Origin: Candidatus Zymogenus saltonus
Lineage (GTDB): Bacteria; Desulfobacterota; Zymogenia; Zymogenales; Zymogenaceae
Direction of reading: 5' to 3'
Length of the DNA stretch: 64,000 bases
NCBI GenBank assembly: GCA_016929395.1
Contig: JAFGIX010000069.1
Span: 4,986 to 68,985 of the forward strand
Every line of letters starts with the position of its first letter. Within the stretch, counting starts at the first letter, position 1. Shown here one piece after another: positions 16,625 through 46,374 of the stretch. The notes below the pieces were generated by a model. It ran no database searches. It was given only the letters and a program-made list of their open reading frames with translations, and was not told where the DNA came from. A program made the position numbers and the translations under genes.

Positions 16625-16802
16625 TAGACTTTTGTCCTTTGGATTGTGTTGTGTATTGCAGCCGGAAAGCGGATGAGAAGAGGGCGGATTACGCCTCGTG
16701 GGAGAAATTATTGAGTCGCCGTCCCGTTTTGGATGCAGGGAGGGACGGGGGAGTGGGAATTTGTAATGGAAAATCTTTATCGTATATAACGGGGAGGACA
16801 AA

Positions 16803-17735
16803 TTGCCTCGAAGACCTAAAATAGCGGTGGTAGGCGCCGGAAACGTGGGGCAGTCGGCCGCCCTCTTCATCGCCGAAAAGGAGCTGGGCGACGTCGTCCT
16901 CGTCGACATCGTCCCCGATATGCCGAGGGGGAAGGCGCTCGATATCCTCGAGGGCGCCCCTGTTGGATATTTCGACGTCGATGTCAGGGGGGAGAGCGAT
17001 ATGGGGGCTATCTCCGGCGCCGATCTTGTGATCGTCACTGCCGGCTCCGCCAGAAAGCCGGGCATGACGAGGGACGACCTCCTGGAGGTCAACGTCAAGG
17101 TGGTCAAGTCGATCGCCGAAAATATCAAAAAACACGCCCCGGAGGCGTTCGTAATCGTGGTGACCAATCCGTTGGATGTCATGGCCTGGGTGACAAAGGA
17201 GGTGACCGGCTTTGACCGGAGACGCGTCGTAGGGATGGCGGGGGTCCTTGACGGTTCGAGGTTCTCCGCCTTTATCGCAGAGGAGCTTAACGTCTCGGTG
17301 AAGGACGTTTCCGCGATGGTGATGGGGGGGCACGGCGACTCGATGGTGCCTATCGTCAGCTGCGCCTCGGTTTCGGGAATCCCAATAACTGAGCTTCTCC
17401 CCAGGGAGAAGATAGATAAGCTGATCGAGCGCACCCGCTTTGCCGGGGGGGAGATAGTGAAGCTTCTGGGGACGGGAAGCGCCTACGTATCCCCTGCCGC
17501 GTCTGCCGTGATGATGGCGGAGGCCTGCCTGAGGGATCAGAGGCGGATCGTCGCCGCCTCGGCCTGCCTCGAGGGTGAGTACGGGATCTCCGGGATATAT
17601 CTCGGCGTTCCGGTAAAGTTGTCAGGTTTGGGTGTCGAGGGCATCATCGAAATAAAGCTGACGGATAAGGAAAGGGAGATGCTTGCCGCCTCCGCCGAAG
17701 CGGTGAGGGACGAGATCAAGAAGGTAAAGCTGTGA
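16803..17735 (+). CDS. mdh: malate dehydrogenase (LDH-like)
   Basis: Rossmann GAGNVG, 310 aa, TTG start. Confidence 0.9.
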   Translation: MPRRPKIAVVGAGNVGQSAALFIAEKELGDVVLVDIVPDMPRGKALDILEGAPVGYFDVDVRGESDMGAISGADLVIVTAGSARKPGMTRDDLLEVNVKVVKSIAENIKKHAPEAFVIVVTNPLDVMAWVTKEVTGFDRRRVVGMAGVLDGSRFSAFIAEELNVSVKDVSAMVMGGHGDSMVPIVSCASVSGIPITELLPREKIDKLIERTRFAGGEIVKLLGTGSAYVSPAASAVMMAEACLRDQRRIVAASACLEGEYGISGIYLGVPVKLSGLGVEGIIEIKLTDKEREMLAASAEAVRDEIKKVKL

Positions 17736-18595: not shown

Positions 18596-19687
18596 TCAGC
18601 TTGTTATTTTTTTGTTAGTAAGAAGACCCAGCGAGTTTAGTATTTCTTGTAATGATTCCAAGTTATTTATTGCAGATTGTAAATCCTCAACCCTTAAATA
18701 CTCAACCGATTTTCTAAAACCCTCTGATAAAGATGATATTTCATTTCTAAATTTCTCGATCTCCGTATCATTAGATACTATTATTACTTTCTGTATGCTC
18801 GGATCTCTATTTACAATCTTCTGTAAATTTAATATGGCTGAATCACGTCCCCCTCTACGGTGAACTTCAAAAGCATAAGCTATTATTCCCAAATTTGCAA
18901 TTCTACTTTTCCAAATAACATCGATTCTGCTACCGGCTGCTATTTTAATTTCTTTATCTACATCAAAACCAAGTCCGTCACCTAATTTTAAAACCAAGTC
19001 AACTACTTCATCATGATCAAAATCTTCTGAAACTTCTGAAACTAAAACATCACCTTCTTTTTTATCAGGTACATTCATACTAATATAATACAGGAGGAAA
19101 TCTAGATAGAAAAGGTCTTCAAATTCTTTGAATTCATTGATAATTTTATCTTTAACCGCATTTACCAAATCACAAAACAATTTATACTGTTTTCCACTTA
19201 TCGCCGCTGATTTTGGAAGCTCCTTTTCTGAAACACCCAGAGCAATTAAACCTTCTTTTGATCTTCTGTTGTAAATCGGATATTTACTGCTATCACTGTG
19301 GGTTAATATCTCTGAAACAGCGGCTGCCCCCATCATTCTGACATTTTTGATAATTAGATCAAAGCGTTTTTCAATAGGTTCATTGCTAAATAAAAGGTAA
19401 CCAAAGGAATCACGTATTTTTTGTATATCAGATTTGAGCATTTCTTGTAGGAGGTAATCTTTATTAGTCCAACTATTAAAAGCCCATAATTTGTGTATCA
19501 TCTCACGTAGTGTTCCCTCATCAAGTTTCAGTAATCCCTCTTTTGAGAAGTACTTTTTGAAAAATTTATTATTATATGTCCGTTCTTCTTCCCAAATTTT
19601 TCCTTCAGTTTCAATAAATTTCTTGAATTTGGGAATAACTTTTTTAATATACTCGGTATTTACATCAACCATTTTTTTAAATCGCAA
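18596..19687 (-). CDS. hypothetical protein on a strongly AT-rich foreign segment; C-terminal PD-(D/E)xK-like pattern, candidate orphan nuclease / defence gene
   Basis: 363-aa ORF with Lys/Ile/Asn-rich composition, unlike the flanking genes. C-terminal FDVD...IDVIW...AFEVH pattern. The start could be TTG 19687 or ATG 19672. Confidence 0.75.
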   Translation of the reverse strand: MRFKKMVDVNTEYIKKVIPKFKKFIETEGKIWEEERTYNNKFFKKYFSKEGLLKLDEGTLREMIHKLWAFNSWTNKDYLLQEMLKSDIQKIRDSFGYLLFSNEPIEKRFDLIIKNVRMMGAAAVSEILTHSDSSKYPIYNRRSKEGLIALGVSEKELPKSAAISGKQYKLFCDLVNAVKDKIINEFKEFEDLFYLDFLLYYISMNVPDKKEGDVLVSEVSEDFDHDEVVDLVLKLGDGLGFDVDKEIKIAAGSRIDVIWKSRIANLGIIAYAFEVHRRGGRDSAILNLQKIVNRDPSIQKVIIVSNDTEIEKFRNEISSLSEGFRKSVEYLRVEDLQSAINNLESLQEILNSLGLLTNKKITS

Positions 19688-37865: not shown

Positions 37866-38069
37866 CTATAGATCCACGAGATCCCCGTTCGGCATCAAGT
37901 CGTCTTCAGGCGGCGAGCCGGTCTCGTTGAAGATCTTCTTCCTCACACAGGTTTCCGATTTTTTCTTGTTATTACAGTACTCGTCGATCAACGAAGCGCA
38001 GGTTTTTTTATAGGAATCCCGGTATTTCTTCAAGAATCCGCAATCCTCGAACTTCTCACACATATCCAT
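37866..38069 (-). CDS. small Cys-rich protein (67 aa), hypothetical
   Basis: Five Cys residues. Purine-rich RBS-like GAGAGAGAAG upstream. Confidence 0.3.
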   Translation of the reverse strand: MDMCEKFEDCGFLKKYRDSYKKTCASLIDEYCNNKKKSETCVRKKIFNETGSPPEDDLMPNGDLVDL

Positions 38070-38248
38070 TTTTTCTTCTCTCTCAAGTGGTTTTTCTTAA
38101 AGCAGATTGTCAACAGTAAAAATCGCTATTTACCGTGCATCCGTTTACAAAGCACCGATTGGGGATTGAATATGAGATTACCCCGTCTCTCATCAGTCCT
38201 TTTTCGGCGCAGAAAGTACTTCATTCGTTTTAAATCGGATTTATGCTC

Positions 38249-38271
38249 AAAAAAAAGCGGCTTTCGGCCGC
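38249..38271 (-). terminator. candidate intrinsic terminator (GCGGC tttcg GCCGC + T8 on the - strand)
   Basis: Short GC stem followed by an 8-nt T-run on the minus strand. Confidence 0.45.
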
Positions 38272-38329
38272 CTCACTCTAAACCCAGATTTTGAGATTTG
38301 CTTTTTCCATAATCGGTCAAAAAAATCGT

Positions 38330-38560
38330 CCCTATCCCAACATGCCTTTTCCGCCCCCACCCCCCCCCTCAGCTCGACTTTCCCACCTCCCCTAACTCAA
38401 CTTTCCCACTCCTGTCTCAATTTCCCTGTCTCCCCGACTCAACTCTCCCCACCCCAACTTGCCTTCCCCCCCTAATTCAACTTTCCCACTCCCCACCCGA
38501 CTCAAGTTGCCCGACCCTCGACACAATTAACTTCCTCTACCCCTTCTTGAATCCTACTGA
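38330..38560. repeat. degenerate tandem repeat, ~22-bp unit (CTCAACTTTCCCACTCCCC-like); pyrimidine-rich on + and purine-rich on -
   Basis: About six to eight imperfect copies (cagctcgactttcccacctcccc, taactcaactttcccactcc, ccgactcaactctccccacccc, taattcaactttcccactcccc, ...). Confidence 0.6.
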
Positions 38561-38642
38561 CCCGTTACCTAAAAATCCCTGCCCCCCTTTTAAATCCTCT
38601 CGGCATTTTGTATAAACCTATTCTGCCCTTTCTTTATTGGGA

Positions 38643-38906
38643 CTAATCAGAATACTTGATATCGAAGTCCGATTCCATCTCGTCTATAAATTCCAGGGTC
38701 GCCTTGAAGTATTCCAGGGTGCCGTGCTCCGTTCCCTTCATCGCTTCAAGTTTCTTGACCTGGTTTTCCTCTGTGGCCTCCGGTGAGGTTATATGGAGGT
38801 ATATCCTGTCCCTCAACGATGAGTCGTCACAGGAGATCGACAGGGAGCCTTCGGAAAACGAGATCTCACCTATTTTTGTTCCGCTTTTTATAATGTCAGC
38901 TTTCAT
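38643..38906 (-). CDS. hypothetical protein (87 aa)
   Basis: ORF with coding-like composition. No motif. Confidence 0.45.
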   Translation of the reverse strand: MKADIIKSGTKIGEISFSEGSLSISCDDSSLRDRIYLHITSPEATEENQVKKLEAMKGTEHGTLEYFKATLEFIDEMESDFDIKYSD

Positions 38907-39130
38907 ATTAAATTCCTATTTGGGAATTATAGCATAAGTGACAGATGAGAGACAAGAAAAAATAGACTTTTTCGAGAGGAGCACAGAGTTTTTATTTTTT
39001 CCTCTTTTTATCGGAGAGGACGATTCCGGATCCGCTTTTCGAATATTTTATTGTGTCTGGACTGTTTTGGAAGTTTGCCTGCCAATATTGTCGACCGTAA
39101 TTACTCCTTTATCTTGGTAAAGTTTTTCTA

Positions 39131-39698: not shown

Positions 39699-40686
39699 AT
39701 GAGGTATATAAAAATTTTAACGGTCTTTGTTTTATTGATCTTAATCGCCGTTCCCGCCGCTGAGCCGCAGGAACGCCATCCGATGGTGATTGCAATTTCG
39801 CCCTGGATAGGGTACGGGCCGCTTTACGTCGCTAAGGAGAAGAGGTTTTTTGATGACCTCGATGTGGAGATAAAGATAATCAAGGAGCAGGACAAGCGGA
39901 TAGCCCAGCTGATGGGGAGGTACGCCCAGATAGTCGCGTGTCCGGCCGGGGCTATGGTCAGAAACAGCAGGAAGGAGGTCGAGTTCAGGGCGTTTTTGGT
40001 GATCGACGAGTCGAGGGGGGGGCGACGGACTCGTGGCCATGAGGGGGATTTACGATATACGCGACCTTGCGGGGAGGAAGGTCTCGATGGCCCTTTACAC
40101 CCCCAGCGAGTTCTGGTTCGATATGCTCTTGGAGAGAAGGGACCTGGAGGATCTCAAGGAGGAGATAAGTTTTGTAAACTTCGAGGGATTGGAGGCCCTT
40201 TCCGCCCTTAGAAGGGGGGACGTTGACGCAATGGTCGGCAGGGAGCCGTTTTTGTCCTCGGCCGTGAGGGAGTTTAAGGGAAACGTCATAGCCACAAGCA
40301 GCGAGACCCCCGGTCTCGTGGTGGACGTCCTCTTCTCCCAGAGGGAGACGATCGAGAGGAGGCACGGCGACTTCGAGAAGGTGGTGAGGGGCGTTTACAG
40401 GGCCGTAGACTGGATGGAGAGAAATCCCGGCGCGGCGAAGGGGATTATCAAGAAATATCTTGGGGAGAACTACAGGGTCGCCTCCGATTTCGACAACACA
40501 TTTTCCGCGGTATCCTTTTACGACAGGAATATGAACCTGCGCTATTTCGGCACGGAGGACCATCCGGGGGACTTCGAGGATACATTGGACGAGATTATCG
40601 ATTACTGGAGAGACAAGGGCGAGCTCTCGTGGAAGCCGGACCCCGAGGATTTTATCGAGTATTCACTGGTGCCGACGTACGAGTGA
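39699..40686 (+). pseudogene. NMT1/THI5-like ABC-type substrate-binding protein, interrupted by a frameshift in a G6 homopolymer
   Basis: Two ORFs (39699-40211 and 40033-40686) in different frames. Together they make one continuous SBP if a single G is removed from or added to the run at 40017-40022. Confidence 0.7.
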
Positions 40687-44050: not shown

Positions 44051-45916
44051 ATGAGCAATTACGTTGTTGATGAGCGGGACCAAAAGTTTGTCTTGTACGA
44101 ACAGTTGGACATAGAGAAGCTCACGGGGTATCAGAGATACTCGGATTTTTCAAAGGATGTCTTCGATATGGTAATCGAAGAGGCCCGCAAGTTTACCGTG
44201 GATATCTTGGAGCCCACGGTCGAGGAGGGGGAGAAAGAGGGGTGCAGCCTCAAGGACGGCGTGGTATCCGTCCCGAAGTGCTTCCACGAGCCTTACAAGA
44301 CATTCTGCGAGGGGGGCTGGCTGAGCATGGTTCACAGTCCCGAGGTCGGCGGACAGGGAATGCCCCAGATTTTGGGGACGGCGGCCAGGGAATATTTTAA
44401 CGTCAACTTTTCATTCTTGGCCTACGTGGGGTTGACCGAGGGGGCCGCCCACCTGATTCATAATTTCGGCACCGAGGAGCAGAAAAACAAGTATTTGTAC
44501 AAGATGTTCTCCGGCGAGTGGGGTGGATCGATGGTCCTTACGGAGCCTGGGGCCGGAACGGACGTGGGGTCGCTTAAGACCTCCGCCAAGAAGAACCCTG
44601 ACGGCACCTACTCGATCACCGGGACGAAGATGTTCATAACCGGAGCCGATCAGGACCTGGTTCCGAACATCGTACACCCGGTTCTCGCCAGGGTCGAGGG
44701 TGCGCCCGCCGGAACCAAGGGTATATCAATCTTCCTCGTTCCCAAGTACCTCGTGAAAGACGACGGCAGCCTGGGCGAGAGGAACGACTGGAACGTCTCA
44801 AACATCGAGAAGAAGATGGGGATCAAGGCCTCGGCCACCTGCGTTGTGAACTTCGGCGACAACGGCAAGTGCTACGCAGAGATCCTGGGCGAAGAGGGCC
44901 AGGGGATGAAGATCATGTTCGTCCTCATGAACGAGGCGAGGATAGGTGTCGGAATACAGGGGCTTACCGCCGCCTCCAGGGCCTATCTCTACTCGGTCAA
45001 GTACGCAAAGGAGAGGCTCCAGGGGTCCGACCTCGCAAATTTCAGGAACCCGGACGCCCCGAGGGTCCCCATCATCAACCACCCGGACGTGAGAAGGATG
45101 CTCCTCTGGATGAAGTCCCACACAGAGGCGTTGAGGTCGCTGGTCTACTACACCTCCTGGTGCTCCGATATGGCGGTAGTGGCGGAGAGTGAAGAGGAGA
45201 GGGAGAAGTGGCACGGGATTCTCGAGGTCTTGACGCCGATCCTCAAGGCGTACGGGTCAGACACCGGCTTCAAGGTGGCAGACCAGGGGATCATGGTTCA
45301 CGGGGGATACGGCTACACCTCCGATTACCCGGTGGAGCAGATACTGAGGGACGTGAAGATCGCCGCCATCTACGAGGGGACGAACGGCATCCAGTCCCTC
45401 GACCTCGTGGGGAGGAAGCTGGGCCAGAAGAAGGGGCAGAACTTCATGAGCCTAATGGGCGAGATATACGGCTTTATATCCAGACAGGAGAAAAATGAGA
45501 AGATAAAAGACCTCGTAGCCAAGCTGAAGGAGGGGGTCGATACCCTGGGCGAAATGGCCGGCTTCTTTGCGAAATGCGGCAAAGAGGGCAAGTTCCTCGT
45601 GCCGGTCGGTAACGCCTACCCGTTTCTGAACCTCATGGCCACGGTTCTTTCCGCCTGGATGCTCGTCTGGCAGGCCTCCATCGCCTCGGAGAAGCTCGAC
45701 GCGATGGCGAAAGAGAAGGGGGCCGATCCCTCCGACTGGGGGAAGTGGGCCGAGTTCATAAAGGACAACGCCGACGCCGCTTACTACTCCGGAAAGGTGG
45801 CCGCCGCCAAATATTACGTCAACAACGTCCTTCCGGGGATAGACTCCATCGCCAAGGCGATCAAGACGGAAGACCTCTCGATCATGGAGATCGCGGAGGA
45901 GTCGTTCGCCTTTTAG
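44051..45916 (+). CDS. long-form acyl-CoA dehydrogenase
   Basis: 621 aa with ACAD N-terminal, middle (TEPGAGTD) and C-terminal domains plus a C-terminal extension. Confidence 0.85.
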   Translation: MSNYVVDERDQKFVLYEQLDIEKLTGYQRYSDFSKDVFDMVIEEARKFTVDILEPTVEEGEKEGCSLKDGVVSVPKCFHEPYKTFCEGGWLSMVHSPEVGGQGMPQILGTAAREYFNVNFSFLAYVGLTEGAAHLIHNFGTEEQKNKYLYKMFSGEWGGSMVLTEPGAGTDVGSLKTSAKKNPDGTYSITGTKMFITGADQDLVPNIVHPVLARVEGAPAGTKGISIFLVPKYLVKDDGSLGERNDWNVSNIEKKMGIKASATCVVNFGDNGKCYAEILGEEGQGMKIMFVLMNEARIGVGIQGLTAASRAYLYSVKYAKERLQGSDLANFRNPDAPRVPIINHPDVRRMLLWMKSHTEALRSLVYYTSWCSDMAVVAESEEEREKWHGILEVLTPILKAYGSDTGFKVADQGIMVHGGYGYTSDYPVEQILRDVKIAAIYEGTNGIQSLDLVGRKLGQKKGQNFMSLMGEIYGFISRQEKNEKIKDLVAKLKEGVDTLGEMAGFFAKCGKEGKFLVPVGNAYPFLNLMATVLSAWMLVWQASIASEKLDAMAKEKGADPSDWGKWAEFIKDNADAAYYSGKVAAAKYYVNNVLPGIDSIAKAIKTEDLSIMEIAEESFAF

Positions 45917-46191
45917 TGTCGGGGAGGGTCGGTCGGCTTTTTAGAATGGGTCGGGATTGTTTTATGACTTATGATTTAAGGGTAAGGGTTAGGGGGATCA
46001 TAGATAATTATTTTGACGTGTGAAAACTGAAAGGGGGGGCCCATGTTACGTATTAGTATTAATATCGGCCCCCCTTGTGATTCAAGCGTGCGGGGAAAAC
46101 GGTTTTTAGTGGAACTGGTTTAGGGGGGGAGATCAATCGGTTTGTCGGCACGGTCGGGGGGGTCGCGGCAATTATCTTGACATGTGAAATC

Positions 46192-46218
46192 TCAGGGGGG
46201 AGGGCTGTCGTCCCCCCT
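46192..46218 (+). terminator. intrinsic terminator (GGGGGGA...TCCCCCC + TTTT)
   Basis: ggggggagggctgtcgtccccccTTTT. Confidence 0.5.
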
Positions 46219-46374
46219 TTTATTGTTGGATATCGGGTTTTTAAATTTGGCTGGAGAGCCTTGACCGATGAAGTTCGGCCTCTCCATGTGCGGTAAAATC
46301 GAAAGAGACCTTTATTAAAAAGAAAGGTTTATCAACAAGCAGACTTCCTCCTATCGATTGATTCAGTCTAATCC

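Follow-up and report, generated by a model that had tools for sequence, protein, structure and literature searches.

The 64-kb stretch of DNA analysed here (the window), from the uncultured sediment bacterium Candidatus Zymogenus saltonus, contains, on its minus strand, a gene for an 87-aa acidic protein without an assigned function (JW984_13430, 38643..38906) that occurs only in Candidatus Zymogenaceae. The gene is preceded by a sigma-70-type promoter (38926..38955, minus strand) consisting of TTGTCT, an 18-nt spacer and a TG-extended TATAAT, which scored 10/12 with the TG extension in a promoter scan. The layout tttttCTTGTyT-N17/18-TGnTATAAT is located 20-28 nt upstream of the 87-aa gene, and the extended -10 promoter is conserved in at least seven related loci, including L011, L012, L008, L025, L010 and L001. 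Beyond the stop codon, a terminator scan identified a minus-strand intrinsic terminator (38246..38274; stem 38274..38254) formed by GAGGCGGCCGAAAGCCGCTTT followed by a T-run, and this terminator is near-identical in L011, the closest relative. The interval that separates the stop codon and the terminator stem (38275..38642, minus strand) measures 368 nt, is longer than the 264-nt coding sequence, and has the composition A.29, C.08, G.41 and T.21.

The repeat tract that is the subject of this work falls within this interval; it had been placed 3′ of the minus-strand ORF 38643-38906 and 5′ of a minus-strand intrinsic terminator, and both positions hold. Scanning between the stop codon and the terminator (38274..38246) revealed no promoter-like or terminator-like site. 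The original prediction had offered transcription either as a 3′ UTR or as a separate non-coding RNA; gene layout and comparison with relatives favour the former, while a promoter belonging to the tract itself is not evident. We infer that the array is the core of a long 3′ UTR on the mRNA of the 87-aa gene, with transcription deduced from the layout and the related loci.

The neighbouring genes encode small acidic proteins without assigned function and an M28 peptidase. A 67-aa gene lies downstream, ~270 bp from the array; a sigma-54 promoter considered ahead of it was rejected by eye, with spacing off the consensus. The three neighbouring proteins were also considered as RNA binders, and this idea was dropped: all three are acidic (pI 4.6-5.0) and none has a Pfam match.

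A degenerate tandem array with extreme strand asymmetry

Dissection by hand resolved the minus-strand array (38338..38516) into eight degenerate head-to-tail units of 16-35 nt, with a consensus of approximately TYRGGGGAGKGGGAAAGTTGAG and an overall composition of G 52.5%, C 6.7%, A 24% and T 17%. The units, all on the minus strand, are GGTCGGGCAACTTGAG (unit 1, 38501..38516), TCGGGTGGGGAGTGGGAAAGTTGAA (unit 2, 38476..38500), TTAGGGGGGGAAGGCAAGTTG (unit 3, 38455..38475), GGGTGGGGAGAGTTGAG (unit 4, 38438..38454), TCGGGGAGACAGGGAAATTGAG (unit 5, 38416..38437), ACAGGAGTGGGAAAGTTGAG (unit 6, 38396..38415), TTAGGGGAGGTGGGAAAGTCGAG (unit 7, 38373..38395) and the degenerate CTGAGGGGGGGGGTGGGGGCGGAAAAGGCATGTTG (unit 8, 38338..38372). 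Their lengths in this order are 16, 25, 21, 17, 22, 20, 23 and 35 nt, such that the ~22-bp unit proposed originally is correct as a mean and approximate for any single unit. Unit 7 carries GGAGGTG, read from the sequence as a perfect Shine-Dalgarno-like heptamer, and unit 8 holds a G9-T-G5 tract (38354-38368). The array is joined on the gene-proximal side by a degenerate part (38517..38603, minus strand) in which G-runs alternate with A/T-runs (for example GGGGGGCAGGGATTTTTA and GGATTCAAGAAGGGG) and a tandem unit is not clear; this part lies inside the zone with GC skew of -0.6 or below and is without a counterpart in L011. The recognisable units thus span ~180 bp, and the skewed zone (38331-38603) ~270 bp.

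Tandem Repeats Finder reported three overlapping arrays on the plus strand: 38365-38409 (period 23, 1.9 copies, 86% matches), 38377-38495 (period 42, 3.0 copies, 69% matches, score 102) and 38429-38459 (period 15). A score of 102 was reached by none of 300 dinucleotide-preserving shuffles of 38330-38560, and a score of 69 by one of the 300. The claim of a tandem repeat is therefore upheld, and the head-to-tail units exceed chance as in a VNTR or minisatellite. A repeat search found direct-repeat families of 22-29 nt (two or three copies each), whose start-to-start spacings are 38, 42, 63 and 103 nt; inverted repeats were absent. REP/BIME or CRISPR-type repeats were ruled out, there being no inverted repeats and the units being contiguous and degenerate.

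The composition of the region is extreme for the window. On the plus strand, positions 38330-38560 contain 49.8% C, 25.5% T, 18.2% A and 6.5% G; the earlier description of this strand as almost purely C/T captures the depletion of G, whereas with 18% A it is not free of purines. In 150-nt windows the GC skew falls to -0.84, the extreme of the 64-kb window (z = -5), and the most pyrimidine-rich 200-nt stretch of the window (77%) is this region.

Further copies, which the original prediction had proposed to look for, were not found: with a GGGAAAGTTGAG search, and likewise with an nhmmer unit profile run against the window and 27 loci, the array was the only repeat recovered. GGGAAAGTTGAG is present with up to two mismatches in five of the eight units. 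Its matches at this threshold total 11 against 7.4 expected, which is within chance, and the six lying outside those five units are isolated and carry two mismatches each. The array had no blastn match in plasmid or phage collections that would point to a mobile-element origin.

G-rich tails in related genomes

Tails that are rich in G and poor in C follow the 87-aa gene in several relatives. The tail measures 368 nt in the window, compared with 220 in L011, 186 in L012, 181 in L008, 246 in L025 and 160 in L010, and all six contain 33-41% G and 8-13% C. The G-rich tail and terminator are kept in L008, L009, L012 and L025, and the tail follows the 87-aa gene even where relatives lack the downstream 67-aa gene (gene calls place a convergent gene there in L008/L009). 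The tails of close relatives also contain clustered G-runs, but their lengths and unit sequences differ. More distant relatives are without the tail: in L001 and L007 (77% and 71% identical), as in L014-L017 (68-72%), 27-91 nt of normal composition take its place. The tail is therefore dispensable for the 87-aa gene.

The array is real and fast-evolving. An assembly artefact is countered by the L011-type tail, which shows no difference between L011 and L018, two genomes assembled independently. While the flanks and the terminator align well with L011, the array aligns poorly, and the window tail is ~150 nt longer. Similarly, the L025 tail is ~60 nt longer than those of its sisters L008 and L012 and is built from a different unit, GGTTGCTGGAYATTTAG. 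Copy number thus differs between genomes (368 versus 220; 246 versus 181/186), as expected of a VNTR or minisatellite.

These properties invite the main rival to an RNA-level reading of the G-tracts, namely a neutral hypervariable minisatellite in which a G-rich seed was amplified by slippage or unequal recombination in an unconstrained 3′ spacer, without function, and in which the composition is that of the seed plus homopolymer slippage. We regard this as a serious possibility, albeit a somewhat unlikely one. It accounts well for an array that diverges even from the closest relative between conserved flanks, for units homogenised within each genome (AAAGTTGAG in the window versus AAAGCTGAA in L011), for lengths ranging from 27 to 368 nt with many relatives lacking a tail, and for the detection of a clear tandem repeat by Tandem Repeats Finder in this genome only among the tails tested. 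Moreover, two contigs end inside or beside G-runs directly after the stop codon, as expected of slippage-prone tracts. The persistence of the composition is harder to reconcile with neutrality. Six tails share the G-rich, C-poor bias; they represent at least three sub-lineages, L008 and L012 being close sisters, and for every relative except the closest, synonymous sites have reached or nearly reached saturation (dS of the adjacent gene is 0.77 versus L011, 1.8 versus L010, and saturated versus L012). The L010 tail has this composition without an appreciable tandem repeat; the adjacent non-coding DNA between the 111-aa and 87-aa genes is free of the bias on the same strand (G 9-20%, C 12-24%); and independent units, GGGAAAGTTGAG and GGTTGCTGGAYATTTAG, have expanded at the same position. 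Nevertheless, clustering of G-runs and a lasting G-rich composition could arise without selection, through homopolymer slippage and repeated duplication of G-rich units.

Other intergenic regions of the contig show a milder enrichment of G-runs on the sense strand, so that part of the bias may be genome-wide. Milder G-run-rich 3′ regions occur elsewhere on the contig, for example at 45917-46374, and regions of this type hint that G-run-rich 3′ ends may be more widespread in the lineage.

Predicted RNA G-quadruplexes in the tail

The G-runs had been taken to make G-quadruplex (G4) formation plausible, and computation supports this, although the motifs present in this genome are of the long-loop type only. 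The minus-strand G4Hunter score has its maximum at 2.52, above the threshold of 1.5 and the highest value in the window; it exceeds 1.2 over two stretches (83 and 95 nt), which are the longest among the matches listed. No canonical G4 (four G-tracts of at least three, loops of 1-7 nt) was found in 38270-38650, and two motifs appear there once loops of up to 12 nt are allowed; canonical motifs were found in the L011 and L008 tails. The window tail contains 23 G-runs of at least three, compared to 15.1 expected from composition (p = 0.002), and clustering in relatives gave p =.015 for L012, p =.011 for L008 and p =.057 for L011. GGG is among the most enriched trinucleotides in four of six tails and is over-represented in all six for which a z value is available.

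G4-aware folding with ViennaRNA placed three G4s in the minimum-energy structure of the window tail, all on the minus strand: a predicted three-layer RNA G4 in GGGTCGGGCAACTTGAGTCGGGTGGG (38492..38517), which is also a long-loop motif; a predicted four-layer RNA G4 of the form GGGG-N10-GGGG-T-GGGG-N11-GGGG (38432..38469); and a predicted two-layer RNA G4 in the G9-T-G5 tract (38357..38367). The energetic gain from G4s was -30.4 kcal/mol, compared to -12.1 +/- 10.3 in composition-matched shuffles, 7% of which match it; for L011 the gain was -25.0 versus -2.3 +/- 5.1 kcal/mol. G4s were predicted in all five tails folded (L025 was left out), with gains in the top 1-13% of shuffles. The Watson-Crick fold of the 3′ UTR is no better than that of shuffles (z = +0.98). 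No Rfam family reached its gathering score anywhere in the window, and at E-values up to 10 the interval 38000-39000 gave chance-level matches only, to sroD and to a cyano_het sRNA over the terminator. The tail probably folds into RNA G-quadruplexes.

An RNA-level model and its alternatives

We tentatively favour, as quite possible though by no means assured, a model in which a slippage-driven G-tract array acts at the RNA level in the 3′ UTR of the Zymogenaceae-specific 87-aa gene. From the layout, transcription would start at the extended -10 promoter (38955-38926), cross the coding sequence and the G-rich tail, and end at the terminator (38274-38246). Judging from the relatives, the tail would evolve as ~20-nt units are locally duplicated or lost, by slippage or unequal recombination; a unit would supply one or two G-tracts and then a linker rich in A/U that ends in GTTGAG. 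What is conserved would then be a property of the RNA and not its sequence: rich in G, depleted of C, with the G's gathered in runs and almost no Watson-Crick structure. Such a tail may act in cis as a dense G-tract array able to form several RNA G-quadruplexes. The G-tracts could make the 3′ end refractory to 3′-to-5′ exonucleases, and a C-poor tail would give Rho no loading site; through both effects, the stability or amount of the mRNA of the 87-aa gene may be tuned. The tail may also serve as a platform for a G-tract-binding factor.

Functional RNA G-quadruplexes have been reported in bacteria, and those of E. coli and Pseudomonas have been mapped by rG4-seq (PMC6974567). The tail resembles these bacterial mRNA elements in having G-tracts on the transcribed strand, a high G4Hunter score and thermodynamically predicted G4s. 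It differs in its many G-tracts, which make up a degenerate tandem array that fills a 3′ UTR exceeding the coding sequence in length, in its predicted G4s, which lack the canonical short-loop motif, and in that relatives share the property and not the sequence. The likeness to bacterial VNTRs and minisatellites lies in the degenerate head-to-tail units, which differ in copy number and sequence between genomes and are homogenised within a genome; unlike in VNTRs, the strand asymmetry is extreme and always on the transcribed strand of one gene, and the composition outlasts the tandem structure.

An alternative action at the RNA level, which we judge unlikely, is that of a sponge or decoy: a single-stranded G/A-rich tail would titrate a CsrA/RsmA-type GGA-binding protein, a C-rich small RNA, or 30S subunits through Shine-Dalgarno-like GGAGG/GGGGAG motifs. 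Like CsrB, RsmY and RsmZ, the tails are non-coding RNAs of 150-370 nt with a GGA-containing unit every ~20 nt and an intrinsic terminator at the end, and the window tail, with 18 GGA motifs over its 368 nt, is comparable in density to CsrB. Most of the RNA is predicted to be unpaired, the GGAGGTG of unit 7 is fully complementary to the anti-Shine-Dalgarno core, and in the L025 lineage nearly all units carry YKGGRAYRTT, including GGGATGTT twice. However, the 18 GGA motifs do not exceed expectation (18.3 under mononucleotide and 20.1 under dinucleotide shuffling), L011 has 6 versus 9.1 expected, and dinucleotide-shuffle p values range from 0.36 to 0.98 across tails. In addition, hairpins that could display GGA in their loops are absent (fold z = +0.98, no inverted repeats), Rfam gives no match even at relaxed E-values, an independent promoter is not evident, and tblastn did not find CsrA, FliW or Hfq in 181 kb, a small part of the genomes. 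The fit to a CsrB/RsmZ-type CsrA sponge is poor: GGA is neither over-represented nor placed in hairpin loops or stem-loops, the RNA is a 3′ UTR without its own promoter, and covariance models of CsrB, CsrC and RsmX/Y/Z gave no match. The sponge RosA is reportedly a stand-alone small RNA in which the defined G-rich sites are few. The G-rich stretches of the tail could, like those of RosA, pair with C-rich regulatory RNAs; unlike in RosA, there are more than 20 G-runs in an array, and no C-rich partner is known in the lineage. In Bacillus subtilis, the G-rich regions of RosA pair with C-rich regions of the small RNA RoxS (PMC8216469).

A function at the DNA level appears very improbable. Here the array would provide iteron-like or UAS-like binding sites controlling the 67-aa gene, or a G4, i-motif or R-loop tract affecting transcription or replication. 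The mean unit of ~22 bp is roughly two helical turns, and the array lies upstream of the 67-aa gene at the distance given above. The G-rich strand is the non-template strand, and this arrangement is conducive to R-loops and DNA G4s; G-rich non-template-strand repeats that form such structures include immunoglobulin switch regions and mitochondrial CSB II. The array resembles them in that its tandem repeats are degenerate and G-rich and lie in a presumably transcribed region, on the non-template strand, but they are eukaryotic or organellar and served by dedicated downstream machinery. The spacing of units is irregular (16-35 nt) and unphased, between the array and the 67-aa gene lies a strong terminator, and no replication-initiator or regulator gene is adjacent. 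According to their gene calls, at least L008/L009 keep the G-rich tail without a downstream 67-aa gene, and in every lineage the bias tracks the transcribed strand of the upstream gene. An iteron-like or phased array is not borne out, its units being irregular and no gene for a cognate binding protein lying adjacent. The protein-binding array that had been suggested as an alternative to G4 formation was neither confirmed nor refuted overall, GGA not being enriched and the spacing arguing against a phased DNA-binding array.

Two further readings are highly improbable. Rho prefers a C-rich, G-poor composition, and the plus strand, where C makes up 50% and G 6.5% across a span exceeding 200 nt (80 nt or more being expected of such a site), has that of a Rho-loading (rut) site, but an antisense transcript acting in this way or as a C-rich regulatory RNA would have no plus-strand promoter-like site upstream and no plus-strand terminator or gene nearby, and in relatives the feature accompanies the 87-aa gene of the minus strand. 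Equally improbable is a small Gly-rich peptide from a 44-aa minus-strand ORF with a TTG start (38526..38392): the ORF is present and its 13-residue block GSGKVELGGEGKL matches a short L011 ORF at 10 of 13 positions, but the units are read in differing frames because their lengths are not multiples of three, start positions are non-homologous between the window and L011, the ORFs in the L025, L012 and L008 tails are unrelated, the ORF has no Pfam match, and chance alone should leave frames of this length open, since G-rich DNA has few stop codons.

Returning to the RNA-level model, its strongest form is a selected device, which we consider rather doubtful: a birth-and-death G-tract array in a C-depleted 3′ UTR, conserved in composition, that would form multiple RNA G4s or bind a G-tract-specific factor and thereby set how stable the mRNA of a lineage-specific small protein is in Candidatus Zymogenia, or how much it yields. 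Were the array neutral, it would be a hypervariable marker locus for Zymogenaceae populations, and a warning that repeats with extreme strand skew can survive between bacterial genes even when they serve no purpose. If it is functional, it would represent a bacterial 3′ UTR selected for composition and G-tract density instead of sequence or Watson-Crick structure, and a natural test case for RNA G4 arrays in bacterial mRNAs, a question that is poorly settled. If the selected-device reading is true, what defines this bacterial 3′ UTR element would be a physical property and not a motif or a fold.

A degenerate, strand-asymmetric tandem array

Within 38365-38495, Tandem Repeats Finder detected periods of 23 (86% matches), 42 (3 copies, 69%, score 102) and 15. 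Because a score of 102 was reached by 0/300 dinucleotide-preserving shuffles of the region and a score of 69 by 1/300, the repeat is more than low complexity. The original prediction of a tandem repeat at 38330-38560 holds, and the degenerate array is genuine and exceeds chance expectation. On the minus strand it consists of eight contiguous units of 16-35 nt (38338-38516), with a consensus of roughly TYR-GGGG-AG-K-GGG-AAA-GTTGAG. A repeat search of the region recovered direct-repeat families of 22-29 nt, each with 2-3 copies at spacings of 38-103 nt; inverted repeats were not found. The motif GGGAAAGTTGAG is present with ≤2 mismatches in five units; the remaining six hits across the window stand alone and carry two mismatches, and the total of 11 versus 7.4 expected is within chance. 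An nhmmer profile of the units found no match outside the array, either in the window or in 27 related loci. A 12-mer of unit 2, GGGGAGTGGGAA, recurs at 16748-16759 (plus strand) in the leader of an ORF starting at 16803, inside a canonical G-quadruplex (G4) motif at 16738-16757.

The strand asymmetry of the array is extreme. GC skew in 150-nt windows falls to -0.84, the extreme of the 64-kb window (z about -5), and the most pyrimidine-rich 200-nt stretch of the window (77%) lies here. The plus strand of 38330-38560 (C 49.8%, T 25.5%, A 18.2%, G 6.5%) had been described as almost purely C/T, which overstates the case, as its A content makes it G-depleted rather than purine-free. On the minus strand the array alone is 52.5% G and 6.7% C.

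The tail of the 87-aa gene and its counterparts in relatives

Promoter, ORF and terminator calls place the array within a single promoter-gene-tail-terminator unit on the minus strand. The 87-aa ORF (38906..38643) has ahead of it a sigma-70-type, extended -10 promoter (TTGTCT, 18 nt, TG-n-TATAAT; 38955..38926) and after it a putative 3′ UTR of 368 nt (38275-38642), longer than the coding sequence, and then an intrinsic terminator (stem 38274..38254, then eight T's). Between ORF and terminator no promoter-like or terminator-like site was found on this strand. The tail (A.29, C.08, G.41, T.21) would therefore be transcribed, as the 368-nt 3′ UTR of a ~670-nt transcript. Its Watson-Crick folding is no better than that of shuffles (z = +0.98), the terminator being the sole robust helix, and the region matches no Rfam family; Watson-Crick structure, a conserved ORF and a known RNA family are all absent from the tail. 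Past the terminator lies a Cys-rich 67-aa gene (38069..37866, minus strand). Upstream of it, a block at 38100-38140 (minus strand), GATGCACGGTAAATWGCGATTTTTACTGTKGACAAT, is well conserved in the aligned stretch of the closest relative (L011); it is sigma-54 -24/-12-like with the wrong spacing, and is probably a promoter or operator of the 67-aa gene.

The 87-aa protein is JW984_13430, from a MAG labelled 'Deltaproteobacteria bacterium', and its relatives come from Candidatus Zymogenus or Zymogenaceae; these belong to 'Zymogenia', a fermentative Desulfobacterota class reported from Zodletone spring as well as from hypersaline sites (10.1101/2021.03.22.436540). Both this protein and the 111-aa product of the gene immediately upstream are acidic, lack Pfam matches and are confined to this clade (22 homologues each), with their genes adjacent in every case. 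Elsewhere in the window, an NMT1/THI5-like substrate-binding protein gene (39699-40686, plus strand) is broken into overlapping ORFs (39699-40211, 40033-40686) by a frameshift, pseudogenisation or an assembly error, and relatives carry an AMP-binding enzyme gene at this place. A markedly AT-rich 363-aa ORF (18596-19687, minus strand; 42.6% G+C in the surrounding 2-kb bin versus ~53% for the contig) is probably foreign DNA.

The stretch from stop codon to terminator was taken from the related loci. The 220-nt tail of L011 (92% protein identity to the window; the same sequence as L018, from two independent assemblies) has recognisable homology to the array with fewer units (GGGGGAAAGTCGAG, GGAAAAGCTGAA and others). 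Aligned with the window, L011 shows good conservation of the gene end, the terminator and the sequence preceding the 67-aa gene; the array itself can barely be aligned, and the window is longer by ~150 nt. The 160-nt tail of L010 (87% identity) is G-rich with nearly no tandem structure, and those of L012, L008 and L025 (87-90%; 186, 181 and 246 nt) are G/T-rich with a different unit, GGTTGCTGGAYATTTAG. All of these tails contain 33-41% G and 8-13% C; the 111-aa/87-aa intergenic region, on the same strand, contains 9-20% G and 12-24% C. The adjacent gene has a synonymous divergence of 0.77 for L011 and 1.8 for L010, and is saturated for L012. Units and length of the tail turn over rapidly, and a G-rich, C-poor, G-tract-clustered composition persists in the closest lineages. 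These lineages share a conserved promoter ahead of the 87-aa gene. L008/L009 lack the 67-aa gene, and their next called gene is convergent; they nonetheless keep the G-rich tail and terminator, which indicates that the tail belongs to the transcription unit of the 87-aa gene.

More distant relatives (68-77% identity: L001, L007, L014-L017, L022, L027) have tails of 27-91 nt with ordinary composition, or none. The exceptions are patchy. In L020 (1528-1720) the tail is purine-rich (A.41, G.30) and 190 nt long, and the contigs of L023 (1684-1701) and L026 (1149-1170) break 18-22 nt past the stop codon, in each case immediately after an initial five- or six-G run, so G-rich tails may be under-assembled and commoner than complete loci show. 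The L001 lineage (L001 3776-3902; also L002-L006, L019) has a G/A-rich, C-poor stretch of 120 nt between the 111-aa gene and the promoter of the 87-aa gene; the 87-aa gene is there directly followed by its terminator.

G-tracts and quadruplex potential

The window's tail contains 23 G-runs of ≥3 versus 15.1 expected from composition (p =.002), with 90 G's inside runs versus 56 expected (p <.0005). Such runs are also in excess in L012 (p =.015) and L008 (p =.011), with L011 at p =.057 and L010 not significant. Recurrent enriched trinucleotides of the tails include GGG, TTT and AAA, so G-tracts alternate with A/U-tracts.

The proposed G-quadruplex potential has computational support. The highest G4Hunter score of the window, 2.52, falls here on the minus strand, and two segments, of 83 and 95 nt, exceed 1.2. 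With G-quadruplexes enabled, the ViennaRNA minimum-energy fold contains three (38517-38492, 38469-38432, 38367-38357), a gain of -30.4 kcal/mol versus -12.1 ± 10.3 in composition-matched shuffles. At least one is predicted in each of four related tails folded, with gains in the top 1-13% of shuffles. Canonical motifs (loops ≤7 nt) occur in the L011 and L008 tails; the window's tail has none, and two long-loop motifs.

Possible roles and origin of the tail

Taken together, the original observation stands and its interpretation is supported in part. We tentatively favour a model in which the transcribed tail is under RNA-level selection on composition, and would act as an array of G-tracts or G-quadruplexes, shielding or tuning the mRNA 3′ end and evading Rho. 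The main rival, a neutral minisatellite whose G-richness perpetuates itself through unit duplication and homopolymer slippage, is credible if on the unlikely side: more distant relatives dispense with the tail, and the clear tandem repeat is confined to this genome. A sponge for CsrA, for a C-rich small RNA (RosA-RoxS being a precedent; PMC8216469) or for 30S subunits via Shine-Dalgarno-like GGAGGTG is improbable and without specific support; the CsrA motif GGA exceeds the frequency predicted by composition in no tail. The case for a DNA-level binding array is weak, given irregular unit spacing, the terminator before the downstream gene and the loss of that gene in relatives, as are those for a plus-strand function, which lacks any promoter, and for a peptide, with inconsistent frames and no conserved ORF.

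Less pronounced G-run-rich 3′ or 5′ regions at other places in the contig (45917-46374, 16738-16765) point to the G-run bias being in part a general tendency of the lineage, which makes the finding less specific. The first of these (plus strand; G.35, C.15; 13 G-runs of ≥3) is non-coding and lies 3′ of a 621-aa ORF (44051-45916) read from its sequence as acyl-CoA dehydrogenase-like. Its GGGTCGG...TTTTTAG units resemble those of the L008/L025 tails, and a 34-nt direct repeat, AATTATYTTGACRTGTGAAA.CT.A.GGGGGG, at 46006 and 46170 is followed in each copy by a G6-7/C6 hairpin; cumulative GC skew and gene orientation switch at this stretch.

The array resembles bacterial rG4-containing mRNAs (PMC6974567) and intergenic VNTRs, and lacks the tested defining features of CsrB/Rsm sponges, iterons, REP elements and CRISPR arrays. 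With a clean comparative signal and a credible neutral origin its interest is modest, and it is most suitably classed as a further case of a G-tract-rich, putatively G4-forming minisatellite, distinguished by filling a long bacterial 3′ UTR and by keeping its composition but not its sequence.
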